A stretch of DNA of 64,000 bases. Origin: a candidate division WWE3 bacterium (GTDB taxonomy: Bacteria; Patescibacteriota; WWE3; UBA101185; UBA10185). Positions 7,031 through 60,669 of the stretch are shown here, in pieces (the first letter of the stretch is position 1; every line of letters starts with the position of its first letter). A program made the translations under genes and the position numbers. The notes below the pieces were generated by a model that was not told where the DNA came from, did no database searches, and was given only the letters and a program-made list of their open reading frames with translations. Location of the stretch: NCBI GenBank assembly GCA_014729135.1, contig WJKK01000001.1:64593-128592 (forward strand), read 5' to 3'.

Positions 7031-7360
7031 CTACAAAAGCAACGCAAATTTCCAAGGAACCTTCACCATAGCATCGTTCACCTCCAAAGGGCTTGCTGAA
7101 AAAATCAGGCCGTAATCTCCTCCTATGGAACGCAGCGTTTCTGCAACTTGAGCGTAGTTCTTCCGGCCGGAACCAACCTCAATAATAAGGCGACGATCAG
7201 GACGCTCCAGAATAAAATCAGCGCCCTCCCGCGAACTATCATAGAACAGGGGCTTCTCTACTCCCGAAATCAACATCTCCTGTAAGTATCCGGCGGTAAT
7301 ATCCTCTAAAAGATACCCCTTATATTTTGAATACGCTTCCTCCCCATTAAGGGCGTACAT
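7031..7360 (-). pseudogene. Possible C-terminal remnant of a third COG1373/DUF4143-type ATPase paralog
   Basis: The 109 aa ORF has GADFILERPDRRLIIEVGSGRKNY, resembling the C-terminal (D...ExK-like) segment of the neighbouring ATPases (EIDFVL...GLEVKNT and KEIDLI...GFEFKWG). No ATPase domain is present. Confidence 0.3.
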
Positions 7361-13915: not shown

Positions 13916-15241
13916 CTACTGCGCCGAAAAGCCACGCTTAATTGCCTCTGTAATTGATTTTACCTTATGAGGAGTTATTATGTTAGTAAACCCTAGATTT
14001 TCAGCTTCTTGGGCGCGCGCCTCCATATGAGCTACTTTTCGAATTTCCCCTGAAAGTCCGCACTCCCCAAACGCTACTGTCCCCTTTTGTAAGGGCTTAT
14101 CCTTCATGGAAGAAACTAAAGCCAAACAAACGGCTAAATCTGCTGCATTTTCTCTTATGTGCATGCCTCCAACAACACTTAAATAAACGTCGTGTTCAGA
14201 AAAATCCAGTCGATAACGTTTTTCCAAGATGGCCATTAACACCTGAAGTCGATTGCTGCTAAAACCACTCGTTGTTCTTCTTGGGTAGCCAAATGCCGTT
14301 CTTGAAGTTAGCACCTGCACTTCTAAAAGGAGCGGCCTGAAGCCTTCCATGACTGTTGTTACACAGGATCCGGAGGTTTGCTGTCCGGACTGCTCCAAAA
14401 AGATTTCGGAAGGATTTTTGACCTCTAACATGCCCTCTTCAGCCATTTCAAAAATTCCCACCTCTGAAACAGGTCCAAAACGGTTTTTTGTGGTTCTAAG
14501 TATGCGGTACATGTGCTGTGAATCCCCCTCTAGGTAAAGGACGGTGTCTATAATATGCTCCAAAATTTTAGGGCCGGCTATTTCGCCTCCTTTGGTGATG
14601 TGGCCGACTAATACTATTGGAAGGCCTTTCTTTTTTGCTACGTTGGTTAGGCGCTGTGTACACCCTCTAAGTTGGGATATTGAACCGGGAATTCCTGTGA
14701 AATCTGATGAATACAGTGTCTGAATAGAGTCAATTATTGCCAAATCTACATCCTCCCTACTCTCTAGGGTTGCTATTAAGGAGTCTACGTTTGTTTCTGA
14801 TAATAAATGGAGGTTTTCACCGGAGTAGTTCATGCGATTGGAGCGTACTTTAATCTGCGATGGAGATTCTTCACCACATAAATATAGTAGCTGTAAGTTT
14901 GACATATTTTTGGCAACTTGAGTAAGTAATGTACTCTTTCCTATCCCAGGCTCTCCTCCAATGAGTACAACTTGTCCACGAACGAAACCTCCCCCTAAAA
15001 CGCGATCAAATTCACCTATATTGGAGCTGATTCTTTTGAGTTCTTGTGCTTTAACTTGGGATAGCTTTGTGGTCTTGGAAGCTGCTGCTGAACCTTTGTT
15101 GAGGTTAATAGATCCTTTTTGATCTAATTCTATACTCTCTTTTAGAGTGTTCCATTGCCCACAGGAAGGACACTGCCCTACCCAGCGTACGGTCTTATAA
15201 CCGCACTCGCTACATACATAGTTCTTTTTTGGTTTCGCCAT
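13916..15241 (-). CDS. radA: DNA repair protein RadA/Sms
   Basis: N-terminal C4 zinc finger (CSECGYKTVRWVGQCPSCGQW), RecA-like Walker A GGEPGIGKST, KNRFG motif, Lon-protease-like C-terminal domain. Confidence 0.9.
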   Translation of the reverse strand: MAKPKKNYVCSECGYKTVRWVGQCPSCGQWNTLKESIELDQKGSINLNKGSAAASKTTKLSQVKAQELKRISSNIGEFDRVLGGGFVRGQVVLIGGEPGIGKSTLLTQVAKNMSNLQLLYLCGEESPSQIKVRSNRMNYSGENLHLLSETNVDSLIATLESREDVDLAIIDSIQTLYSSDFTGIPGSISQLRGCTQRLTNVAKKKGLPIVLVGHITKGGEIAGPKILEHIIDTVLYLEGDSQHMYRILRTTKNRFGPVSEVGIFEMAEEGMLEVKNPSEIFLEQSGQQTSGSCVTTVMEGFRPLLLEVQVLTSRTAFGYPRRTTSGFSSNRLQVLMAILEKRYRLDFSEHDVYLSVVGGMHIRENAADLAVCLALVSSMKDKPLQKGTVAFGECGLSGEIRKVAHMEARAQEAENLGFTNIITPHKVKSITEAIKRGFSAQ

Positions 15242-19206: not shown

Positions 19207-19338
19207 TATCCCGGCGACGACCTATCTTCCCAGACACGCGGTCTAGTATTTTCAGCGCTGGTAAGTTTAACTTCTCTGTTCGGAATGGATGTCCCGACAA
19301 GCGGGACGTAGAGGTGGGTCCTTACCGCCATCGTCACC
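19207..19338 (-). rRNA. rrf: 5S rRNA
   Basis: The reverse complement reads ...ccattccgaacagagaagttaaacttaccagcgctgaaaatactagaccgcgtgtctgggaag... with helix I ends ctcggtgacgatggcgg / ggtcgtcgccgg. Boundaries are approximate. Confidence 0.6.
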
Positions 19339-20170
19339 GAGATGATGCTTATAAACTGAGCTCATAACGGATATCCCCTTTCTTGCTCAGGCTTCCCTTC
19401 GGTCAGAATTCGCTCAAAAGGGGATATCCGAAATTCGCTAGGTGTATGAAGGCGAGAAGTGAAATGCTTCCTAACCTAATACACAAAAGTGCTTGTTTTA
19501 CTTTGAACAAGGGGATTCCCTTTTGCACGACATTTCGGAGCAAAGCGACGTCGTGGAGTGCAAAAGCGGAAACACTTGTTCAAATCCAACAAGAACAAGC
19601 ACAAATATTCTATTTTCAAAGAAATCAAGTAGATCAACTGCGCTCAATTGCCTCACAAGTTATTTAACAACTCGTAAGCTAGAAAAGAAGCGCAACATTA
19701 GTACTGCTCGGCTGAGAATTCCTCCAAACGTCATCATTTTTCCTAAGCAAAAGGGCAAGCCCAATTACTTTTGGAAGGCCGATTCAGTAAGAGAAATATC
19801 TACACACCCCTTACGGGGCTTACACCTACAGCCTATCAACCTGGTAGTCTCCCAGGAGTTGCGACCCACTTAAAGTGGGATAGTCCTAATCTTGAGGTGT
19901 GCTTCGTGCTTAGATGCTTTCAGCGCTTATCACGTCCGAACGTAGCTACCCAGCGATGCTCCTGGCGGAACAACTGGTACACTAGAGGTTCGTTCATTCC
20001 GGTCCTCTCGTACTAGGAATGACTCCTCTCAGGACTTTGCGCCTGTTGCGGAAAGGGACCGAGCTGTCTCACGACGCTCTAAACCCAACTAACGCGCCTT
20101 TTTAATGGACGAACAGTCCAACCTTTGGGACCTTCTCCAGCCCCAGGATAAGACGAGTCGACATCGCATG

Positions 20171-21006
20171 TTAATCAATTATTACTAATTGCACTGACTA
20201 TATCTTCTTCCTCATTCCTTTAAACCATCCATTTGTTTAAAGAGATAGGAGTCGGCGTATTATGAAAGTTTAAAATACAACACTTTACTCAAGTCTTCCA
20301 TCTCGCCCGCTTTTACGGGCTCAGTCGATACGGGGTCATAACAAAAGTTTATACTTCATACTCTCTATTATCAGAGGCTCCGTTAAGGTATTAAACCTTT
20401 TAACGCATCTCTTATAAAGGCGTATTCTGAAGTAAATTTTATCCTTATTCAAAGAGCCTTCTAAACCAAGTTCAGTTAGCTTTTTGAGAAGAAAACTCTG
20501 ATCCTCCAGGTCAAATTGTTGAGTATTGAAATAAACAGAATCCCTGTCTTTAGAACCATCATCCATAAACCATACAGCTAAAATCAAAGGATCTAGCTTT
20601 AGGTTTCTAGGAATGGTCTTGTACTCTTTTTGAGAATAATAATCCTCATAGAATACATTCAGTTCAGGCAGACTTCTGGTTGTAAATCTATAAGAAAAAC
20701 GGTTTTTCCCGGATTTTCTTAATTTTGGAGGAGTTAAAACATAAGATTTCAACTTCTCATACAACCAAAAGACATAGTCTTTCTGTTTATTAGAGTGGTT
20801 TATCTCCAAAAGAGTATTTTTTCTCCTTCGTAAAGAACCATCTCCCAACAATTTCCCTGTTATTATGGATTTTTGGACTTTTGTCAGACTTCCCACGGTA
20901 TCATCCATGTACAAAATAATACCACAATGTACATTAGGACTCCACCGTTATTAGCCGAATTTTTGGTACCGAATTACTTCGATAGCACCCCTTTCTATTT
21001 CCTTGT
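20171..21006 (-). mobile_element. Group I intron in 23S domain V, at the E. coli ~U2500 site (GGCACCU|CGAUGUCG)
   Basis: The exon junction reconstructs the conserved GGCACCTCGATGTCG. The upstream exon ends in U and the intron ends in G. It contains a LAGLIDADG ORF and shares 5' and 3' sequence blocks with the 16S intron. Confidence 0.75.
20336..20914 (-). CDS. LAGLIDADG homing endonuclease (single-chain, two motifs) inside the 23S intron
   Basis: Motifs ITGKLLGDGSL and ILAVWFMDDGSKD. N-terminus MYMDDTVGSL is paralogous to the 16S-intron ORF. Confidence 0.8.
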   Translation of the reverse strand: MYMDDTVGSLTKVQKSIITGKLLGDGSLRRRKNTLLEINHSNKQKDYVFWLYEKLKSYVLTPPKLRKSGKNRFSYRFTTRSLPELNVFYEDYYSQKEYKTIPRNLKLDPLILAVWFMDDGSKDRDSVYFNTQQFDLEDQSFLLKKLTELGLEGSLNKDKIYFRIRLYKRCVKRFNTLTEPLIIESMKYKLLL

Positions 21007-21049
21007 AGGTGCCAAACAGTGCCGCCGCTGTGGGCGCTCGGGCACTATT

Positions 21050-21080
<31 letters not shown>

Positions 21081-23140
21081 ATAAGTTCCGGGCCTACCAT
21101 TAGGCACTCGGAAGATCACTAAGACCTACTTTCGTATCTGCGCGATTTGTATATCTTGCAGTCAAGCTCCCATATACCTTTACGCTTACATCCCGATTTC
21201 CATCCGGGACAAGGGAACCTTTGTGCTCCTGCGTTACTCTTTAGCAGGAATCCGCCCCAGATAAACTGCCCTTCAAACATTGTCCTCTCACCCGATAAGG
21301 GCGAACAGTTAGGCTTGCACTAGTGAAAGAGAGGTGTTTCATCGACGTCCTCCAGTCGTTAAACGGGAGAACTCCCTCCTACTCTACACAGTCAATAGCA
21401 CGCACCAATGTCAGAATACAGTAAAGCTCCACGGGGTCTTTCTGTCCAGCAACAGGTAACCGGCATCTTTACCGGTAGTTCAATTTCACCGAGTTCGTGA
21501 CTAAGAGAGTGCTCAAGTCGTTACACCTTTCGTGCGGGTCGATAATTATTCGACAAGGGATTACGCTACCATAGAACAGTTATAGTTACTGCTGCCGTTC
21601 ACCCGAGCTTGAACCGAAAGCTCATTCCACTCCTAAGAGGGGAAATCACCTCCAGTCTTAACTTACAGGCACTGGGCAGGTGTCGGCCCCTATACCTCCT
21701 CTTGCGAGTTTAGCAGAGACCTGTGTTTTTAATAAACAGTCGCTTGAGCCATTTCTGTGCCCCCCACGCAATTAAGCATGGGGCATCCTTTTCCCTAAGT
21801 TACGGATGTAATTTGCCTAGTTCCTCGGCCACGATTCTCTCGTTCGCCTTAGTATTCTCTACTTGTCTACCTGTGTCGGTTTGCGGTACGGATACTAAAA
21901 AACCTCCCTAGAAGCTTTTCCCGGGAGCTTAACGCAACCGGATCACGCCTTTCGACGCTTTTCCCCCGGCTCACGTGAGTCTCCTTGCGGAGACAACGCC
22001 CGTACGGATTTGCCTGTACGGACTAGCTTGCCTTCGGGACTCAAATCCATAATGAGCCCGGCCTATCAAACTCCGTCCCTCCATTGGTAAAAACGGTTTT
22101 TCAGTAGTGCAGGAATATTAACCTGCTGTCCATTAGCTACGCCTTTCGGCCTCACCTTAGGACCGACTAACCCTCCGATGACTGACATTGCGGAGGAACC
22201 CTTAGACTTTCGGCGAGGTGGGTTTTCACCACCTTCTCGTTACTCATGCCAGCATTCTCTCTTGATAACGCTCCAGCAGCCCTCGCGGGTCTACCTTCTG
22301 TGCTACGTTCAAGCTCTTTTGAAGCCGATCCTGATTTACATCAGGATGACATCTTTAAAAGTTTGAATGTTATCAATGCTCCCCTACCTTCTGCCTCCTA
22401 CAAGAGGAGACAAAACCATAGTGTCGGTTCTTTGCTTGAGTCCCGTTAAATTTTCGGCGCAAGGCCGTTTAACTAGTGAGCTGTTACGCTTTCTTTAAAG
22501 GTTTGCTGCTTCTAAGCTAACCTCCTAGCTGTCTAAACAGACTTACTTCCTTTCTCACTAAGCATTCCACACAAGGTGGAACCCCCACAAAAGTGGGGAA
22601 AGATTTGGGACCTTAACTGATGGTCTGGGATGTTTCCCTTTCGCGCTAGGAACTTGCTCCCTAGAACTGACTCCCGGTCAACGGATTTGCGCATTCGGAG
22701 TTTGGTAAGAGTTAGTACGCAAAAGCGCCTAATCTCTTTTCAGTATCTCTACCTCACAAATCCTATAAGACCAAGGCTATACCTACATATATTTCGGGGA
22801 GAACCAGCTATTGCCAAGTTCGATTACCGTTTCAGCCCTAACCACAGGTCATCCGAGCATTTTTCCACATACACCGGTTCGGGCCTCCATCCACCTCTCG
22901 ATGGACTTCACCCTGCCCATGGTTAGATCACTTGGCTTCGGGTCTAATAGCACGTACTTATCGCCCGTTAAGACTTGGTTTCCCTTTGCCTCCACGACTG
23001 AATCGTTTAAGCTTGCACGTGCAATTAACTCGCTGGCTCATTTTTCAATAGGCACAATATCACCCGAACTTATCCGAAGATAAGTGGGCTCTATCAGCTT
23101 GACTGTGTACGGTTTCAGATTCTATTTCACTCCCCTATCC

Positions 23141-23185
<45 letters not shown>

Positions 23186-24262
23186 GTCTTGACGTGTTTA
23201 GCCTTAGCAGATGGTCCTGCTTCCTTCACACGAGGTTACCGTGTCTCGTGTTACTCTGGACAACTCAAGAAGATTCTTTGTTTCGTTTACGGGGCTATTA
23301 CCCTCTTTGGCTCCACTTTCCAGGAAGATTCTCCTACAAAAAATTTTCTAACTTCTTTTGTCTTAAAGACATAGAGTTTCCGAACCGCCAAGCACAAATA
23401 TAATTTGTGCTTGCCTTTGGGCTGATTCCCGTTCGCTCGCCGCTACTAGGGAAATTACTTAATTTAGTTTCCTTTCCTCCGGTTACTAAGATGTTTCAGT
23501 TCACCGAGTTACCTTCTCTTTACCTATACCCCACGAATTGTGAGGTTTTAGTAAAGGATAACTGTATTAAACAGATGGGTTTCCCCATTCGGAGACCCCC
23601 GGCTAATAACGCTTCTTATCAGCTGACCGAGGTTTATCGCAGATTGGCGCGTCCTTCTTCGGCATCAAGACCCAAGGCATCCACCATACACATTGAGTAT
23701 CTTTTCCAGCTTACAAGTTGGCACACAACCTGTAAGACAGTAATAAAGGTATTTCCTTTATTACGAGGAATATCTCCTTTTTGTTTTAAGGCACTCTCAA
23801 AGGGAGCGTCTTACCGCCGCCCTTAACGCCTTCTCAGGAGATATTTCATTCGATGAGGAAACGAGGTCCTCACCACGTTTCCTACAATTGAACATTTGAT
23901 ACTTTTAAAACGTTTGGTTTTACCCTTACGTTTTATCTGTATTGTTGATCTACTTAATTTTCAAAGATCTGTTAAGTTTGCGCGTGTGATTGCTTTTGCG
24001 TTCACATTTGGCAAAGTTAACTTAGCAAACAAAAGTGAGAGCATTCTAGTGCAGACACTTTGTTTATGCTTTTCAAGTTGGCTAAAGCCTAACTTGAACG
24101 GCTTCTGAAAACCTCTCTAAAGAAGTTCTCAAGACTGACAATCTCGAGGAGAGATCGTCAATCTTAAAAACTCCTAGTTAATCGGCTTTAATGAAACGTT
24201 TTGAGCCGAGAGGCATTGTATCATATGGTTTTTCAATGTAAATGACCCAAAAAGTTCCGCGA

Positions 24263-24335
24263 AATTTCAAAATACTCAATCCGCCTTCGGCGGATTTCGG
24301 GCATAAGCAAATCTTCCAGATTTGCTTAAGCGCAT
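24263..24335 (-). other. Two hairpins 3' of tRNA-Ala, before the 23S 5' end; possible processing or termination structures
   Basis: Near-palindrome gcataagcaaatcttccagatttgcttaagc (24301-24333) and aatccgccttcggcggatt (24278-24296) with a weak T-run on the minus strand. A copy of the first palindrome also lies 5' of tRNA-Ile at 27886-27918. Confidence 0.35.
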
Positions 24336-24357
24336 TAAAGTGCCTTTGGCACTTTAA

Positions 24358-24434
24358 TGGTGGACTCGGCGGGAATCGAACCCGCGACCTCCGCCATGCA
24401 AAGACGATGCTCTAGCCAACTGAGCTACGAGCCC
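24358..24434 (-). tRNA. tRNA-Ala (anticodon UGC), CCA encoded
   Basis: The reverse complement gggctcgtagctcagttggctagagcatcgtctttgcatggcggaggtcgcgggttcgattcccgccgagtccacca folds as a cloverleaf. Anticodon loop cuUUGCAug. Confidence 0.85.
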
Positions 24435-24478
24435 AAAAACCTGCCTCCGGCAGTTTTTGGGTCCAAGCAAACGTCAAA

Positions 24479-24520
24479 GACGTTTGTTTGCTACCTAAAA
24501 GGTTACAAAGTAACCTTTTA
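24479..24520. repeat. 42-bp direct repeat, copy 1, containing a perfect hairpin aaaaggttac-aaa-gtaacctttt
   Basis: gacgtttgtttgctacctaaaaggttacaaagtaacctttta. Second copy at 24711-24753. Confidence 0.6.
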
Positions 24521-24710
24521 CCCGAGAACCACCTACGGAAGCTCAAGGACTTAACAAAACGCCTTGCGTTTTGTTATGCCCAAAAATTTCAAAGAAATTT
24601 TTGGGGCCAGGTAAATGCGATTGAACAGGAGCATTTAGCTGGACCGTAAAACTTCTATGAAGTTTTACAAGGCATCCGAAAAAAGCTCAAGAGAGCTTTT
24701 ACGCAAAAAA

Positions 24711-24753
24711 GACGTTTGTTTGCTACCTAAAAGGTTACGAAGTAACCCTTTAA
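24711..24753. repeat. 42-bp direct repeat, copy 2 (2-3 mismatches)
   Basis: gacgtttgtttgctacctaaaaggttacgaagtaaccctttaa. Confidence 0.6.
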
Positions 24754-24883
24754 TCCTGCACAAAGTACAAATAAAGCAACTCCAAATATTAAATTAAAAA
24801 CCGGGATATCAGAGCCTCTTTTTTAAAGAGGATTAATTCCATTCCTAGTGAATCCATCAATGAATCCACGCAACAATAAGTTA

Positions 24884-26113
24884 TCATTCAAACAGGCGCA
24901 TGTCAACACTTTTAAGCAAATTCTTCAGACCATTTAACCCCTTCGAATGTTCCCCCGCTTCAGAAACAACCTCCTCATACATTTCAAGCGTCTGACTTGC
25001 AACATTAGACCAATCCATATGGGAAACCTTCTCCTTAGCTGCCAAACACAGCGCCTGATAATCCTCCTGGGGCAAACTTGCCAACTCCTTTAACTTAGCA
25101 GCAAAATCCTTGGGAGCCGTTTCCAAAGGAAAGTTATAACCCACCGAAACATCCACAAACTCATTAGTAGTTTCATTTTCCAAAGACACAATAGGCGTAC
25201 CCGAAGCCAAAGCCTCCAAAACCGACAAACTCTGAACCTCCTTTAGTGAAGCGGACACAAAGAAATGAGACTCTTCAAGCATTTTAGGTATCTTCTTATG
25301 AGGTACTTTACCTACAAAACTAACTAAAACCTCTGCTTTTTCAACTTTATTCTTCAGAAGTTCATCATAACCATCATTCAATGGAACCCCTATTAGATTG
25401 AGCTCAAACTCCTTTTTGGGTAAATGTTTCATAGCATCTATTAAATACGCCTGATTCTTGCGCTTGTTAAGGTAACCAACAAAAATCAGCTTTTTTGGAG
25501 TTGCTGTAATGTCCGCGCAAGACAAGTCTGCGTAATTTTCGAGGTTTCGCCCGTTAGGTATCGTATAAACAGGCGTTTCTAAGTCGTAAGTTTCCAAGTC
25601 TTTTAAAACGGAGTCGTTTATGGCGATGATTGCAGAGGACTTCTTTAGAAACAGGTCAAAGTAACTGTCAAAAACTTTAGAGTCAAAAAGCGATTGCATC
25701 TTTGGAAAGAGCTCTGCTAAACCAAAAGTCACAACCTCTGAGGGAATTGTGTGAGAGGTGAAAACCGTAGGTGTCTTATTTTTTAGTGCCCACAAAAGAG
25801 AAACAAAAGCTGCAGGACCTTGATCATGAAAGTGGATTATGTCGGGAGAAAAGTCACGCAAAACTTTAAGGAGGGAGTTGATTTTTACAGGGTCCAGAAG
25901 CGGTAAAATGACGTCTTGCTTTTTTCTACCGGAAATCTCAAATTGAGTAAAGGTTTTTGTCGTTTTTGTTTTCCCAGTTTCTTCTCCGGAGAGGATTAAA
26001 AGGATATTGTTTTCGGAGGGCGTTTTTGACAAAACTTCTGCAAGCTCCCGGGCTACACGGCCATCCCCTCCTGAGCTATTTGCTGATGCACTGGAAACAA
26101 AAGCGATATTCAT
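24884..26113 (-). CDS. Glycosyltransferase family 4 (GT-B fold)
   Basis: The C-terminal E-x7-E region (EAEVLVSFVGKVPHKKIPKMLEESHFFVSASLKEVQSLSVLEALASGTPIV) is typical of GT4. Confidence 0.75.
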   Translation of the reverse strand: MNIAFVSSASANSSGGDGRVARELAEVLSKTPSENNILLILSGEETGKTKTTKTFTQFEISGRKKQDVILPLLDPVKINSLLKVLRDFSPDIIHFHDQGPAAFVSLLWALKNKTPTVFTSHTIPSEVVTFGLAELFPKMQSLFDSKVFDSYFDLFLKKSSAIIAINDSVLKDLETYDLETPVYTIPNGRNLENYADLSCADITATPKKLIFVGYLNKRKNQAYLIDAMKHLPKKEFELNLIGVPLNDGYDELLKNKVEKAEVLVSFVGKVPHKKIPKMLEESHFFVSASLKEVQSLSVLEALASGTPIVSLENETTNEFVDVSVGYNFPLETAPKDFAAKLKELASLPQEDYQALCLAAKEKVSHMDWSNVASQTLEMYEEVVSEAGEHSKGLNGLKNLLKSVDMRLFE

Positions 26114-26140
26114 GGCAGTTTGAATTCTAGCACACCCGAA

Positions 26141-26325
26141 AAGGGACAGTCCTCTAAGGGGACAGTCCTTTTTAAAACCTACTCTGAAATTCTAGTCTAA
26201 ATAGAAGGGGCTTTAAAAGAGAAACTCTATCGCAAAAGTCAAAAATCAACTTCCTTAACTTCCGAAACTTCTAGTTTAACTAGAATTACTAAAGAGGACA
26301 GTCCTTTAAGAGGACTGTCCCTTCC
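26141..26325. mobile_element. MITE-like composite palindromic element (module A-B' ... B-A) in the GT4 / relA divergent intergenic region
   Basis: Left end aaagggacagtcctctaaggggacagtcc...attctagtctaaatagaa. Right end cttctagtttaactagaattactaaagaggacagtcctttaagaggactgtccc. The ends are imperfect inverted copies of each other (~60 bp). Confidence 0.45.
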
Positions 26326-26354
26326 AGACAAAGCTGCGGTATAATAAGGGCACC

Positions 26355-27770
26355 ATGTCCCTCCCCCAAGCCAAAAAACTGGCAGAAAAAATCTACAAAA
26401 ACAAAACCCGCTTATCCGGGGAAACCTACTACGAACATGCTCTAGAAATCGCGAACCGCCTAAAAAAGTATGGAATCCAGGAAGAAATCACTCTAATAAC
26501 AGCAATCCTCCATCACGCCCTCGACGAGAAAAAAACAACAGCCCAATCCGAAATTGCAGAAATCAGCAAAGAAGCTGCAGACCTTCTAGAGAAATACAAG
26601 CGCCTCACAAAAACCGACATAAAAACAGAATCCCTTACCACTTATAACGAGCGCTACATAATGCAAACTTTTGTAAATCTGGTGGAAGACATTCGAGTCC
26701 TTATAATTAGAGCCGTAGATAAATTGCATGCCCTGGAAAATTCCTGGGCCTTGGAAAAGGAGAAACGTGAGGAGGCTGCTCAAAGAGCCCTTTACCTTTA
26801 TGCCCCCCTTGCAAAAATCCTGGGAGTATCGAAAATTTCAAAAGACCTGGAGGATACAGCGTTTAAAATCCTATACCCGGACAAATACTTTAAAATCAAA
26901 AAAAGTGTACAGAAGCGTTCTTGGGGTACTAAAAAGATTTTTAGGGAGGTGGAAAAGTTTTTAAAGGAGATTCTAGCGGAACAGGGTATTGAGAACTTTA
27001 AGATTCAATATCGGGTTAAAAGTGCTTATAGTTTGCATCGAAAGGTAGAGCGCTACAAAAAGGAAGGTAAGGCGCTGGGCGAGGATTTGAGTAAGATTTA
27101 TGATCTTTTTGCACTTCGTCTCGTTCTTAATACAGTGGAAGAGTGTTACCTAACAGAAAACCTCCTGGCACAACTTTGGGAGGAAATTCCAAACGAACGG
27201 GATGACTACATTAAAAATCCCCGAAGCACAGGTTACCAATCAATCCATAATGCCTTTCAAATTGACAACGACTTCATTGCGGAAGTGCAAATTCGAACGC
27301 ATGAAATGCATCAACAAGCGGAGTTTGGCATTAGTTCGCATCTTTTGTATAAGATTGGGGATAAAGGGGCAAAGTCAAAGGCCGTAGATAAATTCAAAAA
27401 GTACCTCCAAAAACATCCGGAATGGTTTAAGGATTTGAACTTCTGGGAGATTGCGCCGGATAAAAAGTATATACCTAAAACTCCCTTTAGTGACAATATT
27501 TACACGTTTACACCAAAGGGGGATATTATTGAGCTGCCTAAGGGGGCTTCAGTTGTAGATTTTGCCTATAAGGTGCATACGGAGGTGGGCAATAATTGTG
27601 CGGGAGCCTTTGTTAATGGGAAAATTGTTAAGTTGGATCATGTTTTGAGGACGGGGGATACGGTGAAGATTAAGGTGGATAAGCGTAAGCGGCGTCCAAG
27701 TAAGGATTGGCTGGAGTTTGTGGAGACGCGGGCAGCGAAGATTCATATTAATCGTGCCTGGCGGGAGTGA
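26355..27770 (+). CDS. relA: RelA/SpoT-family (p)ppGpp synthetase: degenerate HD, synthetase and TGS domains, no ACT domain
   Basis: HD region ETYYEHALEIANRL...ILHHALDEK (canonical LHD replaced by LHH). Synthetase motifs YSLHRKVE, DLFALRLVL, YQSIHNAF, EVQIRTHEMHQQAEFG. TGS IYTFTPKGDIIELPKGASVVDFAYKVHTEVG. Confidence 0.85.
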   Translation: MSLPQAKKLAEKIYKNKTRLSGETYYEHALEIANRLKKYGIQEEITLITAILHHALDEKKTTAQSEIAEISKEAADLLEKYKRLTKTDIKTESLTTYNERYIMQTFVNLVEDIRVLIIRAVDKLHALENSWALEKEKREEAAQRALYLYAPLAKILGVSKISKDLEDTAFKILYPDKYFKIKKSVQKRSWGTKKIFREVEKFLKEILAEQGIENFKIQYRVKSAYSLHRKVERYKKEGKALGEDLSKIYDLFALRLVLNTVEECYLTENLLAQLWEEIPNERDDYIKNPRSTGYQSIHNAFQIDNDFIAEVQIRTHEMHQQAEFGISSHLLYKIGDKGAKSKAVDKFKKYLQKHPEWFKDLNFWEIAPDKKYIPKTPFSDNIYTFTPKGDIIELPKGASVVDFAYKVHTEVGNNCAGAFVNGKIVKLDHVLRTGDTVKIKVDKRKRRPSKDWLEFVETRAAKIHINRAWRE

Positions 27771-27787
27771 TAGCTATTCAAAGTATT

Positions 27788-27864
27788 TATGGTGGGCGTT
27801 CATGGACTCGAACCATGGGCCTCTCCCTTATCAGAGGAGTGCTCTTACCATCTGAGCTAAACGC
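27788..27864 (-). tRNA. tRNA-Ile (anticodon GAU), CCA encoded
   Basis: The reverse complement gggcgtttagctcagatggtaagagcactcctctgataagggagaggcccatggttcgagtccatgaacgcccacca. Anticodon loop cuGAUaa. Begins 18 nt after the relA stop on the opposite strand. Confidence 0.85.
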
Positions 27865-27871
27865 CCTTGAA

Positions 27872-27892
27872 ATACTCGCCTACGGCGAGTTT
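27872..27892 (+). terminator. Putative intrinsic terminator for relA, located antisense and just beyond tRNA-Ile
   Basis: ctcgcc-tac-ggcgag followed by tttt. Confidence 0.4.
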
Positions 27893-27980
27893 TCAAGCTT
27901 AAGCAAATCTGAAAGATTTGCTTATGCCGTGCAAGTCCGAAGGACTTGTACGATAAGCCTTTGTAAACAAATTTTTTTGG

Positions 27981-28018
27981 TGATCAAAATGTGAGCGTAC
28001 TAACGCGAGCATTTTGAC
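27981..28018. repeat. 38-bp repeat R1 (hairpin caaaatgYgagcg-tactaa-cgcgagcattttg), upstream (5') of tRNA-Ile
   Basis: tgatcaaaatgtgagcgtactaacgcgagcattttgac. A near-identical copy R2 sits 5' of the 16S. Confidence 0.6.
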
Positions 28019-28652
28019 CTCCCTAACAAGTTCTGTAAGAACTTGTTAGTACTGTTGAAATTTCAAGCGTGCCCTGGATGGACACAACCCAACCAAAGCT
28101 CGCCTATAATAGCACAAACAAACTCCACACCCAACCACTAAAACTGCTAAAATAACTCCATGAACCCTGCCACAAACAAAACCCTCCAGAAAATACTAAT
28201 CCCACTTCTTATAGCAACCATCCTAAGCATCAACAAAATCCTAAATATACAAAGCGCTCAGCAAGTCATGCGCGTTTTTGTGAGAATTTTTGTAATTACG
28301 TCTGTGATTTTTGTTGGAATTAAGCTAGTCCCGCAAATTTTTAACCATATTGTTAACGATTAAAAAGAAAAAACGACAGCCCCTTCAGAGTTAACTTCCC
28401 TCTTCCGGGGCTTTAGTCTATTCATCTTCCTCCTCCATAAATTCGACTAAAAATTCCTCGAGGGTCATTGAACACGAATTCCCCGAAGAACGATCTTTGC
28501 CAAAAATTCCCCACAGAAAAAGCAAGAGCAAAGCACCAAACAACAACCACTCATCCATCAGAAACCTCCTTTGAAAGTTGCAAAAATACCACCAACCTGC
28601 CAAGTATACTAAAACAACAAACCAAATTTTAAAAACAAAACAAATAAGAATA

Positions 28653-28684
28653 AAACAAAAAAAGCCTACCATTACGGTAGGCTT
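28653..28684 (-). terminator. Intrinsic terminator ~300 nt downstream of the 16S 3' end
   Basis: Minus-strand hairpin aagcctacc-gtaat-ggtaggctt followed by a 7-nt T-run (plus-strand aaaaaaa before the stem). Confidence 0.5.
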
Positions 28685-29422
28685 AATTTAAAAATCACTT
28701 ATATTTGCTTCAACTTCTCTCTAAACTCAAAATTCAAGAAACCAAAGGCAAAAAGAATGCTCATCTACGAGTTTTGTTATGTGTGAATATTCACCACACA
28801 ACGGCTCACTCGAAACCTTCCCAAAGCTGCTTGTGAGTTACACAGCTCTACTGACTACACGATTTAGGGATTATCACATGTAGTAGGTGTTTCTTCTTTT
28901 GAAGGGCTTTTTTGTAAGTTCATACAAAAAAGATTCCTGCAATCAAAAACACTTGTTACTCCTTAGAAAGGAGGTGATCCAGCCGCAGATTCCCCTACGG
29001 CTACCTTGTTACGACTTCACCCTCATTACTGATTTCACCATGGGACCCCTTAAAAGAGGTACTTCAGGTGACCTCAGCTTTGCTGATGTGACGGGCAGTG
29101 TGTGCAAGACCCGAGAACGTATTCACCGTCGTTTTGCTGACCGACGATTACTAGCGATTCCAACTTCATGAAGTCGAATTGCAGACTTCAATCCGAACTG
29201 AGATGCGCTTTAGGGATTAGCTTTACCTTACGGTATCGCGATACTCTCTGTACGCACCATTGTAGCATGCTTCTAGCCCCAGTCATAAGGGCAATACCGA
29301 CTTGACGTCGTCCCCGCCTTCCTCCATCTTACGATGGCAGTTCCGCTAGAGTGATACAACTAGCAGTAAGGGTTGCGCTCGTTAACCCACTTAAGGGTAC
29401 GCCTCACGGTACGAGCTGACGA

Positions 29423-30294
29423 CCATGTGTAATTCCATTGTTTCCAATGGCACTGACTATATCATCATCCCAATTTTTGCATTGGGAGATCGGCGTGTTA
29501 TGAAAGCGTTTATCCCCACTCATGATTATGTGAGGTAACTTCCATCTCTCCTATAAAAGGATCAGTCGATACGGGGTCATTGTAGTTTTCCGGAAATAGA
29601 ATACTTCCCGATGCCTTCTAGAAACTTAGATAGGGTACTTTTTGAAAAGTACAAACAATAAGTTCCGGCAGCAGAATATCTATATACGGATGTATTTATT
29701 CCTGTGAGTAGGGATCGATCAAGGGATAATTCCGTTGAATCGCCATAAACAATTCTACAGAAAGTTCCCTCCGGAGATATTGAACCATCTCCATCAAATC
29801 TACCCGCAAAATAGGGATAAATACATTCCTTTGCAAGATGTTTCCTATTGGAAAGAGAATATAGGAATTCTCTAACTAAAGGCCTTGAATTAACATAAAC
29901 GTGATAGGCCATTGAAACATTTTTCGAACACTTGCAAAAAGACTTTTTAAATCCTTCGAAACGCTTTGGAATCTCATTACCGTAAATACGGACTCTAACT
30001 CTCTCTTTAGGAAACCTTTCTAAAAGGAAATCTAAAGATCTATAGAGTAAGGTAAGATTCGTATTACTTAGTCCTATGCTGCTGGTTCGTAAATAACGAT
30101 CAGCACCCCAAAGACCAAGAATATAAGCATCTTCTGGATTTGTAAGTAAACTACCAAGACTTCCCACGGTATTGTCCATACACTTATATTAGCATAAGAT
30201 GTATTAGGATTTCACCGTTATTAGCCGATTTTTTCGATAGCGATTACTCGCTAAAGGGCCATCGTTGACGCAGGCCTAAGCCTGCTTTGTGCAT
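29423..30294 (-). mobile_element. Group I intron in 16S between GCAUGGCU and GUCGUCAGCUCG (E. coli ~1059/1060), carrying a LAGLIDADG ORF
   Basis: The exon junction reconstructs ...acaggtgttgcatggct|gtcgtcagctcgtaccg. The upstream exon ends in U and the intron ends in G. Shares cagtcgatacggggtcat and gatatagtcagtgc blocks with the 23S intron. Confidence 0.7.
29577..30179 (-). CDS. LAGLIDADG homing endonuclease inside the 16S intron
   Basis: MDNTVGSLGSLL N-terminus, motif 1 AYILGLWGADRYL, motif 2 YPYFAGRFDGDGSIS. Confidence 0.75.
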   Translation of the reverse strand: MDNTVGSLGSLLTNPEDAYILGLWGADRYLRTSSIGLSNTNLTLLYRSLDFLLERFPKERVRVRIYGNEIPKRFEGFKKSFCKCSKNVSMAYHVYVNSRPLVREFLYSLSNRKHLAKECIYPYFAGRFDGDGSISPEGTFCRIVYGDSTELSLDRSLLTGINTSVYRYSAAGTYCLYFSKSTLSKFLEGIGKYSISGKLQ

Positions 30295-30578
30295 AGCCAT
30301 GCAACACCTGTGTATGCTTCCTAATAAATTAAGATCGGGCACCTTTCGGATTCCTACTACAAACATGTCAAGACTGGGTGAGGTTCTTGGGTTAGCAACC
30401 AATTAAAGAGCATGCTCCACCGCTTGTGCGGGTCCCCGCCAATTCCTTTGAGTTTCAGCCTTGCGACAATACTCCCCAGGCGGCCTGCTTAACGCGTTAG
30501 CTTCGACGCTCAGTCTTAAGACCAAGTATCTAGCAGGCATAGTTTACGGCTAGGAATACAAGGGTATCTACATATTGT

Positions 30579-30886
30579 TACTATGGTTGGATTGATTACC
30601 AACTCCTCATATCGCTATGAGGATCGGACTATATCATTATCTCAACGAATTGAGATATTTGGCGTATAGTCTCTGAGGATTTCCATACTAAAGTGTCCCT
30701 TACTATGGATCTTTCCTGCTGATTGTCTGCACCGGAAGCATTTTTAGGCATTATGAATATTATAGTAATTGTTGTTACCTAATTCAATACCTAGCCCCGG
30801 ATACTCAGATGTTCCAGCATATAGCCAAATTTTAACTCTATAAGGTCGCCCTAATAGAGGGACCGATACCTTGTTGATCCTTTTCT
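30579..30886 (-). mobile_element. ORF-less ~300-nt insertion in 16S near E. coli ~770-785; putative small intron
   Basis: The exon sequence ...gacgaaagctaggggag is followed by non-rRNA sequence until ...tagatacccttgtattcctagccgtaaac resumes. Shares motifs (ttggcgtatagtctctgagg, ccagcatatagccaaatttt) with the insertion at 31150-31512. Boundaries are approximate. Confidence 0.5.
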
Positions 30887-31149
30887 CTCCCCTAGCTTTC
30901 GTCTCTCAGCGTCAGCACAGCCCCAGACAGTTGGCTTCCCCCTTGGTGTTCCTCGTGATATCAACGCATTTCACTGCTTCACCACGAATTCCACTGTCCC
31001 CTAGCTGGCTCTAGTAATACAGTATTGAAAGCAGTCTCTCGGTTGGGCCGAAAGATTTAACCTCCAACTTATATTACCGCCTACAGAACTCTTTACGCCC
31101 AGTAAATCCGGATAATGCTTGCACCCTACGTTTGACCGCTGCTGCTGGC

Positions 31150-31512
31150 TTCTGCTATAGGTTAACCCCCATACTGCAGCTTGTGAGTTATTAATTAACT
31201 CGCCTTGGACTATCTCTTCATCCTCATTCACCTTGGTTAAGGGAAAAAAGGAGTTTGGCGTATAGTCTCTGAGGGCTTTCTCATCATTAGTACAAAAACA
31301 AAATAATATTGCGTACTAAATTAGAGGTTGCCTGCTGATTGTATTGCAATCCATAAGTGGAGCGCGGTTCGCCCCTTTTCGAATTTCCAAAGGATTGTCA
31401 CTGGAGTTTAACTCCGAGTACCTTTGTATTAACAATAGTTTCCAGCATATAGCCAAATTTTCTTATCTAGTGTTACCACTAGAACTACGCACCTGGTCTT
31501 CTTTCAGACCTT
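31150..31512 (-). mobile_element. ORF-less 363-nt insertion in 16S that splits the 515F primer site (ggctaactacgt | gccagcagcagcgg); putative small intron
   Basis: Both exon halves are seen in the sequence. The insertion begins with an inverted repeat aactacgtaaggtctgaaagaagaccaggtgcgtagtt (P1-like). Related to the 30579-30886 element. Confidence 0.55.
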
Positions 31513-32140
31513 ACGTAGTTAGCCGGTGCTTTTTAACGTGAGTTTACAACCCGAAGGCATTCATCCTCCACGCGGCGTCGCTGCGTCAGACTTTCGTCCA
31601 TTGCGCAAGATTCCCGATTGCTGCCTCCCGTAGGAGTGAGGCCCGTGTCTCAGTGCCCCTCTGCCGGTACATCCTCTCAGATCCGGTACCCGTCATAGCC
31701 TTGGTGAGCTTTTACCTCACCAACAAGCTGATAGGCCACAGGCTCGTCCCTAACCGATAAATCTTTGGAGTTTCCTCCACATCGGGTATTAGTTCACCTT
31801 TCGGTGAATTATTCCCGAGTTAGGGGTAGATTCCTATGTATTACTCAGCCGTTCGCCACTAACTATTTAAGGTGTCTACCCGAAGGTAGACGATATAAAT
31901 AGTCCGTTCGACTTGCATACCTTAGGCACGCCGCTAGCATTAATCCTGAACCAGGATCAAATTCTCAAAAAAACATTCTTTTTGCCTTCAGTCCCTCGAA
32001 TAAAATTTCAAGAAACTTAAAGACAAGCGATTTTTAGCTCTATTTAGGTTTTCAATGTGCAAAATAACTAAGTCCAGTTGAAATTAGATATAAACTAATT
32101 CTAAGTAGGAATTATTTAAGCTCGTGAAAACCTAAATAGT

Positions 32141-33103: not shown

Positions 33104-34324
33104 TTATGCATCCCTTCTGAGGAGAGAACGCAACCCCTTAACGAACCTGCCAGAATCTTCGCGACGCAAACTTAGAAACTCCGCATCCCGAAAATAAACC
33201 ATTAAGGCAGGACCAACTAAAGTACTCACCATACTCAAAACCACCAAAGCCGTGATCAACTTATCATCCATTAACCCAACGGAGCGTGCCGTATGCGCAA
33301 CCGCTAAAGTAGTTGACAACTGCGGAATAGAGGAAGCTCCAAAGAAAGCGCCTTCAGAAGGATTAAAGCCAACAAGCCAAGCCCCCAACCATCCACTTAA
33401 AAACTTAGAAAGGATTGAGCCAAAAACGATAAGCAAAATCAACGGCAAAGAAGAATTCACCTCAAATAAAAGAGAAACATCCGTTTGGGTTCCCACATAA
33501 ACAAAAAATGTGGGAATAAAAAAGCCATAACTTAAAGCGCGAATTTTAGCCTTTAAAACCTCGTCATCAATAGTTTCGGATAAAACTACTCCGGCAAAGA
33601 AACCCCCTACAATAGGGTGCAAACCTAAAACTTCAAACAAGATAACCGTTCCCAATAAAACCAAAAACACAGAACGAAGCTGGTCTTGAAAAGGGTCATC
33701 CCCTGCAGTTAAATCCGCTACAAAGGCCTGCAGCTTTGGGAGAAGCAGGCGTAATCCAACGACGATAGCCAACAACAACGGATAGAAAAAGTAAGGAGGC
33801 AAATTGCTTACAGGCTTAATATCCTGCAGTAGTACAGACAAAAGTATCAAACTGAGTACATCTTGTATAATACTCGTTGTAGTAACTGCCCGGCCTATTT
33901 TTAAATCGAACAAATCGTTAGCTTCTAGGGTGGGAATGACCACAGCAACCGAAGATGAAATGAAGACGGTGCCTAAAAGTAAAAGCGTTGTAAAAGAGTA
34001 GCCATAGTAATAGGCAATGGCTAAGCCGGCTACAAAAGGAATTAGGCCGTTAACTAGGGAAAGTAGAAATAGGCTGGGGGCGGATTCCTTGAAGCTGGAC
34101 AATTTTACTTCTAAGCCGGCCATAAACATTAAAAAGATTAGGCCTAAATCTGAAATAAATTCTATGGTGGAGTCGGATTCAAAAAACCCCAAACCGTGCG
34201 GGCCAATGGCTATTCCCCCTAGAATTAGGGCAGCCACCCAAGGAAGATGCAACTTTTTTAATAAGGTTGATGAAAAAAGGCCAATAAAGAGTACTAAAAA
34301 GAAGGCGGGCAGTGCTGTTTGCAT
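33104..34324 (-). CDS. Monovalent cation:proton antiporter (CPA2, Kef/NapA-like); transporter domain only
   Basis: About 12 predicted TM helices. The N-terminus LKKLHLPWVAALILGGIAIGPHGLGF is typical of the CPA2 core. Confidence 0.75.
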   Translation of the reverse strand: MQTALPAFFLVLFIGLFSSTLLKKLHLPWVAALILGGIAIGPHGLGFFESDSTIEFISDLGLIFLMFMAGLEVKLSSFKESAPSLFLLSLVNGLIPFVAGLAIAYYYGYSFTTLLLLGTVFISSSVAVVIPTLEANDLFDLKIGRAVTTTSIIQDVLSLILLSVLLQDIKPVSNLPPYFFYPLLLAIVVGLRLLLPKLQAFVADLTAGDDPFQDQLRSVFLVLLGTVILFEVLGLHPIVGGFFAGVVLSETIDDEVLKAKIRALSYGFFIPTFFVYVGTQTDVSLLFEVNSSLPLILLIVFGSILSKFLSGWLGAWLVGFNPSEGAFFGASSIPQLSTTLAVAHTARSVGLMDDKLITALVVLSMVSTLVGPALMVYFRDAEFLSLRREDSGRFVKGLRSLLRRDA

Positions 34325-34363: not shown

Positions 34364-35677
34364 CTACTCTATCTTTTCGATTTCAATTTTTTTCGTTTTA
34401 AAAAGCAGGCTCAAATTCTCATACAGCCTTTCCGGCTTGGCCACAGGCTCACAAGTCACCAAAACCACATGCACAGCATTCAACTCCGGCCAAGTATGCA
34501 CCGTTAAACTGGAAGTGGACAGCGTGTAATTAAACGTATAGCCTCCACGAGAAAAACGAGTAATATCTGTATCCACCACTTTAAGCCTGTGGTAGTCACA
34601 AAACTTGCCTAAAATCTTTTGTAGACGGTTTTTTGACGATAAAAGCGGCTCCGGAACGTCATAAAGCTTAAACGTAAAGTGCTCTACAAAGGGAAAATCT
34701 GCTGAATGAGGCTCTTGATAAGTGTAAATATTAGTAATTTTCTTTTTTAAAGGCTGATGTGTTGAGGAAAGCGTCTCCAGCAGATAGAGTGAACTGGCAC
34801 TTCCAATAGACTCTGCACCATGATAACGAGCAAAACGATTAATCTTTTCTTTTATCAGCAAATTGTACTTTGCAATAAGTTCCTGAATTTGGAAAGTCTT
34901 TTCAGGCGTTTTAAAACTGTTGCCATAGTAAAGGTAAATATGCTTTCCGGAATTTGGCCCCAAAAATTGCAAAGCCCACTCTAAAAACAACTTAATTCCT
35001 GCGGTAGTATAAGGAGGATCCGTAACTACAACATCAAAACGTCCTCTTAGTTCGGGGCGCAATTCATTTCTGGCATCATAAAGCTCTGTGCGAATGTTTT
35101 CAAAACCCTGCTCTTCCACAATGGAGTTAATCGTATCCAAGATATCCTGGTCAATATCAAAAACCGTAATTTGCGTATACGGAGTTTCAGCTAATCCCAT
35201 AACCACCGACAATAAGTCGTCCTCTCCCAACAGGGCGATTCGCTTACCTTCCAGATCGCCTCTAGCCTCCATGATTTTCACCTTTGCCACCGAAGTATTA
35301 ACCGTAGCAAAAAATTGGTCATACTCTCTTTTTGGAGCTAAATCATGCGCTTTTCGAATTTCCATGAGACGATCCTCTAGGTCAGGATCAGCAAATTCCA
35401 CGAGCGACCAAGCGTATGGTTTTGGAGCCAGTTCTTCAATTTCAGAGGTATATTCCAGTTTAAATAGAATTTCGTCCCCTTCCGGCTCTTGTAAAAGTGT
35501 GGAAATAGTGGATTTGAACCTGCGAAGCGTCTCCTTTGGAAGGCCTGTTTTTCTTATTAGAGAGGCGTTAGTCATTCCCGGATTTTTTAAAATCAGGTAC
35601 AAGATTCCCTCAATTTGAGGTTTTGAAAGACCTTTGTTTTGTTTCTGAATCTCTGTTATTGAGAGCACGGCTGACAT
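34364..35677 (-). CDS. Putative bifunctional polyamine-synthesis protein: N-terminal wHTH + DPPY-motif Rossmann domain (BpsA/DUF43-like aminopropyltransferase candidate) fused to a C-terminal SpeH-like S-adenosylmethionine decarboxylase
   Basis: N-terminal FDVVVTDPPYT within a Rossmann-like region. C-terminal ...HGAESIGSASS... and SLTVHTWPELNAVHVVLVTC resemble prokaryotic AdoMetDC (the E-S self-cleavage site and the HTWPE motif). Confidence 0.5.
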   Translation of the reverse strand: MSAVLSITEIQKQNKGLSKPQIEGILYLILKNPGMTNASLIRKTGLPKETLRRFKSTISTLLQEPEGDEILFKLEYTSEIEELAPKPYAWSLVEFADPDLEDRLMEIRKAHDLAPKREYDQFFATVNTSVAKVKIMEARGDLEGKRIALLGEDDLLSVVMGLAETPYTQITVFDIDQDILDTINSIVEEQGFENIRTELYDARNELRPELRGRFDVVVTDPPYTTAGIKLFLEWALQFLGPNSGKHIYLYYGNSFKTPEKTFQIQELIAKYNLLIKEKINRFARYHGAESIGSASSLYLLETLSSTHQPLKKKITNIYTYQEPHSADFPFVEHFTFKLYDVPEPLLSSKNRLQKILGKFCDYHRLKVVDTDITRFSRGGYTFNYTLSTSSLTVHTWPELNAVHVVLVTCEPVAKPERLYENLSLLFKTKKIEIEKIE

Positions 35678-35683: not shown

Positions 35684-35706
35684 AGCATTCTAGTTTAAAT
35701 AGAAAT
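35684..35706. repeat. Solo copy of palindromic module B (TTCTAGTTTAAATAGAA) in the 35677 / 35749 divergent intergenic region
   Basis: cattctagtttaaatagaaatt. Confidence 0.5.
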
Positions 35707-60640: not shown

Positions 60641-60669
60641 CGAACAAAAGGGGCAGTCCTCTTAAAGGA
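60641..60669. repeat. Degenerate solo copy of palindromic module A, just upstream of nth
   Basis: aggggcagtcctcttaaaggaatgtcaag. Confidence 0.35.

Follow-up and report, generated by a model that had tools for sequence, protein, structure and literature searches.

Candidate REPIN-like insertions in a WWE3 genome, built on hairpins of the type that brackets subclass 2.1 Y1 transposase genes

The DNA stretch under study, a window of 64,000 nucleotides from contig WJKK01000001.1 of a candidate division WWE3 bacterium, contains an rRNA locus of the order 16S-tRNAIle...tRNAAla-23S-5S, in which a GT4 glycosyltransferase gene (minus strand) and a relA/spoT gene (plus strand) are located between the two tRNA genes. 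The DNA between the start codons of these divergent genes contains a composite of palindromic modules, designated c1 (26141-26323), which takes up the interval between the core promoters of the two genes; an earlier sequence-only reading had likewise placed one such composite in the divergent GT4/relA promoter region inside the rRNA locus. A second composite, c2 (49621-49816), is situated between a gene for a Fic-like protein and the conserved promoter of a DUF4870 gene, starting at the Fic-like stop codon and ending 80 bp before the DUF4870 gene. Both composites are REPIN-like, i.e., they resemble the hairpin-forming doublets (REPINs) of repetitive extragenic palindromic (REP) sequences, and they probably represent non-autonomous insertions of the REPIN-like or terminal inverted repeat (TIR) kind, the outer module of which, termed A, would be a REP-like hairpin of the class that belongs to subclass 2.1 Y1 HUH transposases.

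Exact matches to the module A consensus, GGACWGTCC-N7-GGACWGTCC, occur four times in the whole window (26144-26168, 26296-26320, 49625-49649 and 49788-49812), and a fifth copy with three mismatches is present at 60651-60675, while shuffling of the window gave a mean expectation of 0.05 matches and never reached five. The sequence-only reading had located the first two copies correctly (26144 and 26296), whereas its remaining positions, 49624, 49795 and 60641, were off by 1 to 10 nt, the actual starts being 49625, 49788 and 60651. The module is built as a hairpin with a foot (A/T)AGGG, a stem strand GGGACAGTCCT, a 5-nt loop and a second stem strand AGGACTGTCCC. The stem includes the self-complementary GGAC.GTCC, so that two palindromic 9-mers can also be read in the hairpin, and the 16-bp period of these half-sites is explained by the stem plus loop of one hairpin.

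Four A copies fold into stable hairpins (-8 to -13 kcal/mol, z -3.2 to -5.5). The copy in the left arm of c1 (26141-26174, AAGGGACAGTCCTCTAAGGGGACAGTCCTTTTTA) has an A.A mismatch in its stem, folds with -8.3 kcal/mol (z -3.2) and is flanked by an A-tract on one side and a T-tract on the other, while that in the right arm (26290-26323) possesses a perfect 10-bp stem, GGACAGTCCT/AGGACTGTCC (-11.9 kcal/mol, z -4.8). In c2, the left A (49621-49654; -12.7 kcal/mol, z -5.5) overlaps the stop codon, with TTTT after it, and the right A (49785-49816; -9.2 kcal/mol, z -4.5) carries a T.T mismatch in its stem. All A copies within the 64 kb, four good and about two decayed, are intergenic, and module A has the form of a stable imperfect hairpin outside genes by which REP and REPIN sequences are recognized.

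Each composite consists of an A hairpin at either end, in inverted orientation, with one copy of a second module, B, inside each A. The c1 arms 26141-26174 and 26290-26323 are 85% complementary, as are the segments 26188-26207 and 26268-26287; the arms of c1 and c2 are overall 81-85% complementary, those of c2 being analogous to those of c1, and the inverted A-B...B-A arrangement previously suggested for both composites is thereby borne out. The minimum free energy structure of c1 as single-stranded DNA is a single long hairpin (-32.9 kcal/mol, z -4.8), corresponding to the REPIN form of two inverted repeats that fold as one long hairpin, while local hairpins are preferred in c2. When reversed, c1 is collinear with c2 in the order A, short spacer, good B, core, variant B, 11-nt longer spacer and A; the short-spacer arm contains a near-perfect B (TTCTAGTTTAACTAGAA) and the long-spacer arm a variant B with a common TAAATAGAA, and by this collinearity both composites represent versions of one asymmetric element. 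A probable third and decayed element, c3 (60647-60762), is located between the endonuclease III and KsgA genes. It lacks B, its left A matches that of c2 at 23 of 26 positions and folds weakly (-4.1 kcal/mol), and its right arm comprises GCTGTCCC twice with 16-bp spacing (60736-60760), as a weak degenerate partner of the A at 60651. Of the two copies formerly regarded as solo, the A at 60651 has this weak partner, and the B at 35688 is a conserved promoter element, as described below.

Module B, ATTCTA-N7-TAGAAT, is formed by two TAGAAT -10-like boxes placed back to back. An exact match to TTCTAGTTTAACTAGAA is found at 26269-26285, with one mismatch at 49660-49676 and 35688-35704, and with two mismatches at 26190-26206 and 35453-35469; at 0-2 mismatches, 10 strand-matches compare with 0.44 expected. 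Apart from offsets, the B copies previously listed at 26270, 49659, 35687 and 26197 are real, whereas the one listed at 49752, i.e., the degenerate variant B of c2 (TTCTATTTATAGTGGAT, 49750-49766), has more than three mismatches to B and becomes apparent only when the composites are aligned. Absent from that list is a B-like 17-mer at 35453, part of a coding sequence (DEILFKLEYT) conserved in relatives. In c1, both perfect TAGAAT boxes point outward through A: the variant B (ATTCTAGTCTAAATAGAAG, 26189-26207) carries its box on the minus strand, facing the GT4 gene, the promoter scan having returned TTTAAA-17-TAGAAT at this variant B (minus strand, 26217-26189), and the second B (CTTCTAGTTTAACTAGAAT, 26268-26286) carries its box on the plus strand, facing relA. 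The perfect TAGAAT box of B in c2 (TCCTAGTTTAACTAGAAT, 49660-49677) is oriented to the downstream gene.

Syntenic loci of related WWE3 genomes were recovered via homologues of relA (62-71% identity) and of the Fic-like protein (62-65% identity), and the composites are absent from them. The divergent GT4/relA spacer measures 241 bp here versus 110 bp in L149, a related WWE3 locus in which the GT4/relA gene pair is also kept together with the GT4 box TGTGCTAGAAT and the relA box GGTATAAT. The Fic-like/DUF4870 spacer measures 274 bp here versus 78 bp in L153 and L154 and 30 bp in L155, and subtraction of the 196-bp c2 from the 274 bp leaves 78 bp, equal to the spacer of L153 and L154. The DUF4870 promoter downstream of c2 is conserved (GTTGCAA-N17-TATCAT here, GTTGAAA-N17-TAAGAT in L153). 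Neither an A nor a B motif was found in the L149 GT4/relA spacer or in the Fic-like/DUF4870 loci of L153, L154 and L155, and no A-like motif with up to four mismatches occurs in ~100 kb of related WWE3 loci. In the comparison with empty sites, suggested in the sequence-only reading as a check on mobility, the related WWE3 genomes thus lack c1 and c2 at the orthologous positions between genes; their presence is lineage-specific, and the absence in two or three separate relatives favours a gain in the lineage of the window. Of the neighbouring genes, that of the Fic-like protein (48534-49622, 362 aa) has no Pfam match itself, while its homologues carry the Fic domain PF02661; the protein has a C-terminal winged-helix-like tail and extends 4-5 residues beyond the end of its relatives, up to the start of the A hairpin.

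The A pattern is not confined to this genome. A scan over one genome per species returned at least 119 loci, in at least ten phyla among the matches listed, compared with ~35 chance matches estimated for uniform base composition. The matches listed extend past the A pattern to GGGGACWGTCCCC-N3-GGGGACWGTCCCC; among them, the two central bases are identical in 123 of 144, which creates a T.T or A.A mismatch, and the loop on the T strand is mostly GCA or GAA. A GTAG tag is present in some high-GC relatives, e.g., L032, L035, L094, L095 and L112. Searching metagenomes for the window-specific A pattern gave 21 loci, which are without exception high-GC variants unrelated to the window, and yielded no additional copies of the source lineage. 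Some metagenome-assembled genomes (MAGs) among the matches listed contain many hairpin copies (UBA6704, binchicken_co179_59 and MFD09964.bin.2.5), and tandem hairpin arrays with a period of ~46 bp were observed at L015, L075, L101 and L113.

An all-against-all BLAST comparison of the open reading frames (ORFs) around the 119 motif loci listed from the scan over one genome per species produced clusters that were mostly spurious high-GC ORFs; one small cluster led to a gene encoding an IS200-like Y1 transposase (PF01797). In L089 (Microgenomates), a 234-aa Y1_Tnp gene has GGACAGTCCTTATCAAGGACTGTCC on both sides, with a further copy on L021 of the same MAG. Five more homologues from the candidate phyla radiation (CPR), in L120, L124, L126, L156 and L157, have hairpins of the same build on both sides, which are genome-specific (e.g., TAGGGTCAGTCCTTATAAGGACTGACCCTA; AAAGACAGTCTT...AAGACTGTCTTT; AAGGACGGACCC...GGGTCCGTCCTT) and have extra copies nearby. 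The Y1 gene in L034 (Planctomycetota) and L087 (Aminicenantes) is preceded by GGGGACTGTCCCC repeats and followed by GGGGACAGTCCCC repeats, which amounts to a TIR (inverted) arrangement. The hairpin type is thus associated with Y1 genes across genomes, and in each of these eight loci the gene is bracketed by the inverted repeat. The stem mostly lacks self-palindromy in other CPR genomes (GGGTCAGTCC...GGACTGACCC), yet the hairpin is retained, and it is therefore the hairpin, not the tandem 9-mer, that is the conserved feature.

The Y1 family has more than 7,600 members, many of them from Patescibacteria, and N94, H95, H97, Y155 and N159 are invariant in its alignment. With its 234 residues and the motifs NHFH, FQ and YIHLNP, the L089 protein conforms to TnpAY1 subclass 2.1, for which a median of 238 aa and the motifs NH[YF]H, FQ and Y[IV]HLNP have been described (Quentin et al. 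2018, PMC6006769) and which is equivalent to Group 1 of the REP-associated tyrosine transposases (RAYTs) of Bertels and to the so-called TIRYT proteins of Di Nocera et al. 2013 (PMC6006769). Among solved structures, the family profile is closest to E. coli TnpArep (4ER8, E = 4e-5), followed by ISDra2 TnpA; a single-sequence search of the PDB with the Y1 protein returned nothing. The inverted repeats of TIRtrons, which flank TIRYT genes, have GGGGWSAS in common, and some TIRs belong to families of moderate abundance whose members form dimers or clusters (Di Nocera et al. 2013, PMC3733652), while 16-mers flanking RAYT Group 1 genes number ~12 per replicon (Bertels et al. 2017, PMC5581495). Both GGGGACAG and GGGGTCAG fit the published GGGGWSAS motif. 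In module A, GGGGACAG is found exactly at 26159-26166 and on the reverse strand at 49645-49652, and the remaining arm ends read AGGGACAG, a 7/8 match to GGGGWSAS.

Two observations on the CPR Y1 loci may be added. A box of ~24 nt, TTTGTAGGTTATAAGCGrTtGACA, is located ~30-60 nt upstream of the Y1 start in L120, L124, L126 and L156, and is nearly identical across these CPR genomes although the flanking hairpins differ. It may be a promoter or operator; it is absent from the window. In L126, a hairpin AAAGACAGTCTTAATAAAGACTGTCTTT (7238-7279) is located inside a called 777-aa ORF for a Mur ligase/MurB fusion; it differs in type from the Y1-flanking hairpins of the same assembly and may constitute an in-frame REP-like insertion.

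On the mechanism proposed here, the A hairpin would be recognized by a RAYT-like Y1 HUH endonuclease of Group 1 or TnpAY1 subclass 2.1 (TIRYT), and two inverted A hairpins, each with its adjacent B pair, would make up an element of ~190 bp able to form a single long hairpin. By analogy with IS200/IS605 and REP/RAYT, cleavage and rejoining of the single-stranded hairpin, e.g., at the replication fork, would be carried out by a Y1 enzyme that the genome encodes outside the window or once possessed, and copies would enter intergenic DNA as a single strand, without target-site duplication. At least two insertions would have taken place in this WWE3 genome, one between the GT4 and relA core promoters and one just after the Fic-like stop codon, with c3 as a third copy that is apparently decaying. 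Likely side effects would be termination by A and its T-run after the Fic-like gene and a supply of promoters by B. The repeat architecture, the lineage-specific presence and the link between the hairpin type and Y1 genes of other genomes are observed here; we infer that an enzyme of subclass 2.1 exists in this genome and that by analogy such a Y1 enzyme mobilized the copies in the window, and any effect of the composites on transcription is likewise hypothetical.

Several observations weigh against this interpretation. Candidates for the cognate transposase, the search for which the sequence-only reading had suggested as a check, are present in other genomes, as Y1 genes with the same hairpin type, whereas the 64-kb window contains no Y1 transposase gene. 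The feet of the A hairpins read AAAG, GAAG, AAAG and ATAG and thus deviate from the canonical 5' GT[AG]G of REP sequences, and the window contains only 4-6 copies of A. The cores of c1 and c2 (60-73 nt) show no significant likeness (score 17 versus 16.1 +/- 3.1 when shuffled), so neither is a recent copy of the other, and either the whole composite or a single A-B arm could be the mobile unit. The best NCBIfam match of the Y1 proteins is the REP-associated tyrosine transposase model, at 44-70 bits and thus below its cutoff of 80. According to Quentin et al. (PMC6006769), genes of subclass 2.1 have no REP-like sequences beside them. Finally, the relatives are distant (relA 62-71% identical), by which an insertion here is not strictly separable from a loss there.

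The role of module B bears on a more specific version of the proposal. The B copy referred to as B-solo (35687-35705, ATTCTA-N7-TAGAA(A/T)) is an inverted repeat in the divergent spacer between the BpsA gene, which is leaderless, and an M23 peptidase gene, its left box being the BpsA -10 (TAGAAT, minus strand). In the orthologous BpsA/M23 spacers of L149, L150 and L152, ATTCTA...TAGAAT is kept while the spacer sequences between the boxes differ and measure 7 nt, or 18 nt in L152. Because the inverted repeat is present at the same site in these three relatives, B-solo is a conserved promoter-region element and not a mobile copy, and the solo B at 35688 no longer counts as a member of the family; it alone is conserved in position, A and the composite B copies being absent at orthologous sites. 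The composite B copies and B-solo have the whole 17-mer in common, spacer GTTTAAM included, which suggests that the former either derive from B-solo or answer to the same constraint; beyond this, the B-solo region shows only marginal extra similarity to c1. The inverted repeat at the BpsA promoter, conserved in position in three relatives, may serve as an autoregulatory operator. A dimeric operator was considered for B, and the variable spacer (7 or 18 nt) at orthologous sites makes a site of fixed spacing less likely. The BpsA gene itself (34364-35677) encodes a fusion protein in which a BpsA_C polyamine synthase domain is combined with an AdoMet decarboxylase domain, and the N-terminus gives a weak winged helix-turn-helix (wHTH) match.

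With regard to promoters, a -10 box TA(G/T/A)AAT is located 6-10 nt before the ATG, with no evident Shine-Dalgarno sequence, in at least 12 genes of the window (e.g., 13916-15241, 24884-26113, 26355-27770, 33104-34324, 43147-44106 and 44586-45782). This position of the box in many operon-first genes points to leaderless transcripts, apparently the prevailing kind in this genome. The GT4 gene, the genes 33104-34324 and 13916-15241 and BpsA all have TAGAAT as their box, and TAGAAT is the common -10 of the genome. Promoter activity of the B boxes is a plausible prediction, and the boxes could add promoters that read through A into neighbouring genes. A narrower proposal, that the composites form a REPIN-like mobile promoter cassette in which each arm combines a Y1-type hairpin with a TAGAAT pair matching the BpsA promoter/operator of the genome, appears unlikely at present. 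If it were true, transposition would spread promoters, or the sites of one regulator, in a genome of leaderless transcripts, and one copy would be placed to drive relA and the GT4-tRNAAla-23S-5S unit.

As an alternative to insertion, module A could be the operator of a transcription factor, with two dimer-bound palindromic 9-mers, and the composites could be bidirectional regulatory cassettes that evolved in place. Each GGACWGTCC half-site is indeed palindromic and the spacing is fixed at 16 bp, c1 is situated between two divergent promoters, a wHTH-bearing Fic-like protein is encoded beside c2, and the HTH-like domains reported at the C-terminus of subclass 2.1 Y1 proteins (PMC6006769) make binding of double-stranded A conceivable. 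However, A is missing from the orthologous GT4/relA and Fic-like/DUF4870 spacers, which retain the promoters on either side; one A overlaps a stop codon, the stem is not self-palindromic in other CPR genomes while the hairpin is kept, and the same motif brackets transposase genes. The 16-bp spacing, which the sequence-only reading had regarded as typical of a tandem dimer-binding operator, is that of the stem plus loop, and A is not kept at orthologous promoters; this explanation is therefore considered improbable.

Ordinary intrinsic terminators or insulators of the bidirectional type, with an incidental sequence likeness, are also quite improbable as an explanation of the A hairpins. Located behind a stop codon and ending in TTTT, the A at 49621-49654 could act as a terminator, while the A at 26141-26174 has its A-tract and T-tract sides and some high-GC copies of other phyla (e.g., L026, L102 and L012) have A-tract/T-tract flanks. 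Against this, four of the five A copies are located upstream of gene starts or between divergent genes, where there is nothing to terminate, and terminators would have neither a common 26-nt sequence nor a B module in fixed order. In addition, the terminator scan scores sub-hairpins only and reveals no enrichment (7 versus 5.3 +/- 2.1 when shuffled, and 2 versus 2.4). Overall, only the A at 49621-49654 fits an intrinsic terminator, and a position 3' of a convergent gene pair, which would have pointed to terminators, is not general, as a single A follows a stop codon.

The composites had initially been likened to miniature inverted-repeat transposable elements (MITEs), and of this comparison the notion of a non-autonomous insertion is retained on account of the architecture, the empty sites and the hairpin type. 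With imperfect ~60-bp terminal inverted repeats, a length of ~190 bp, an intergenic location and a presence in this lineage only, c1 and c2 do resemble classical MITEs, which a DDE transposase would mobilize by acting on the terminal inverted repeats. No target-site duplication, however, is visible at c1 (flanks CGAAA/TCCAG) or c2 (TGTAA/ATTTC), where the earlier reading had suggested looking for one, a DDE transposase with matching ends was not found, and the terminal module matches hairpins that flank genes for Y1 HUH, not DDE, enzymes. The MITE label is thus very improbable, and the lack of direct repeats flanking the elements is as expected for Y1 transposition. The view of each composite as a small-RNA gene, in which B would serve as promoter and A as terminator or 5' stem-loop, is highly unlikely: B does contain TAGAAT, the common -10 box of the genome, and the A hairpins could terminate or stabilize a transcript, but the cores of c1 and c2 are not conserved, the best Rfam score is 24.6 bits against a gathering score of 100, with no credible family by gathering or E-value thresholds, and the composites are absent in relatives.

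The REPIN-like interpretation is best read as that of a known kind of element, namely the hairpin repeats of RAYT/TIRYT proteins and REPIN-like doublets, in a new host group, WWE3/CPR. No paper linking CPR bacteria with repeats of the REP/REPIN/RAYT type was found in the literature searched, and literature string searches with the A 9-mer and 11-mer returned only eukaryotic primers and Gal4-type sites. The closest likeness is to the TIRtron/TIRYT system: the CPR Y1 proteins are of ~234 aa with subclass 2.1 motifs, their flanking inverted repeats fit GGGGWSAS, and the repeats are also dispersed, in dimers or clusters and at moderate copy number. Unlike that system, the hosts are CPR bacteria, which are not mentioned in PMC3733652, PMC6006769 or PMC5581495, the repeats are compact self-complementary hairpins abutting the gene, and those of the window are joined to module B in an asymmetric doublet of ~190 bp.

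The REP/REPIN-RAYT systems of Enterobacteria and Pseudomonas (RAYT Groups 2 and 3, including the bacterial interspersed mosaic elements, BIMEs, of E. coli) similarly consist of extragenic inverted-doublet hairpins capable of forming a long hairpin, with a single-copy transposase gene bracketed by the same hairpins and no target-site duplication; they differ from the present elements in their 5' GT[AG]G tag, in the enzyme subclass, in copy number, which is apparently low here, and in the internal core, which is not conserved between the copies described here. Some BIMEs of E. coli have a protein-binding (IHF) motif in the linker between REPs, which parallels module B. The IS200/IS605 elements and their non-autonomous derivatives, the palindrome-associated transposable elements (PATEs), also depend on a Y1 HUH enzyme, use imperfect sub-terminal hairpins as recognition elements and leave no duplication, but the two ends of IS200/IS605 occupy one strand and are unlike, while inverted copies are present here; moreover, the Y-motif found here is Y...NP (RAYT class 2) and not Y...Q, and there is no tnpB. 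Promoter-carrying MITEs such as the Correia elements of Neisseria are comparable as small intergenic inverted-repeat elements with promoter-like boxes and hairpins beside genes; in contrast, Correia elements duplicate a TA target and are believed to move by a DDE-type mechanism, neither of which is seen here.

As CPR genomes are very small and compact, REPIN-like insertions in WWE3 would add a new major lineage to the range of such systems. They would also support the notion that TIRYT enzymes have dispersed cognate repeats, since Y1 proteins of subclass 2.1, with matching hairpins on both sides, are encoded in many CPR genomes. A local peculiarity of the present case is the attached promoter-like module B, together with the insertion inside the rRNA/relA control region: c1 fills the control region between relA, a gene of the stringent response, and the GT4 gene upstream of tRNAAla-23S-5S, and its insertion may alter the expression of central growth-control genes. 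For annotation, such palindromes should not be called operators or terminators by default.

The rRNA locus itself (minus strand, 19209-31972), in which the tRNA-Ile/tRNA-Ala interval is interrupted by the GT4 (minus) and relA/spoT (plus) genes, has further features. The 16S gene (28967-31972) contains two group I introns (30605-30877 and 31184-31522) as well as a LAGLIDADG_3 ORF (29577-30179), and the 23S gene (19771-23707) spans 3.9 kb and contains a LAGLIDADG_2 ORF (20336-20914). In a CPR genome examined for its Y1 gene, a gene for a tyrosine recombinase (Phage_integrase; L156, 18004-20211) is interrupted by an intein with a LAGLIDADG domain.

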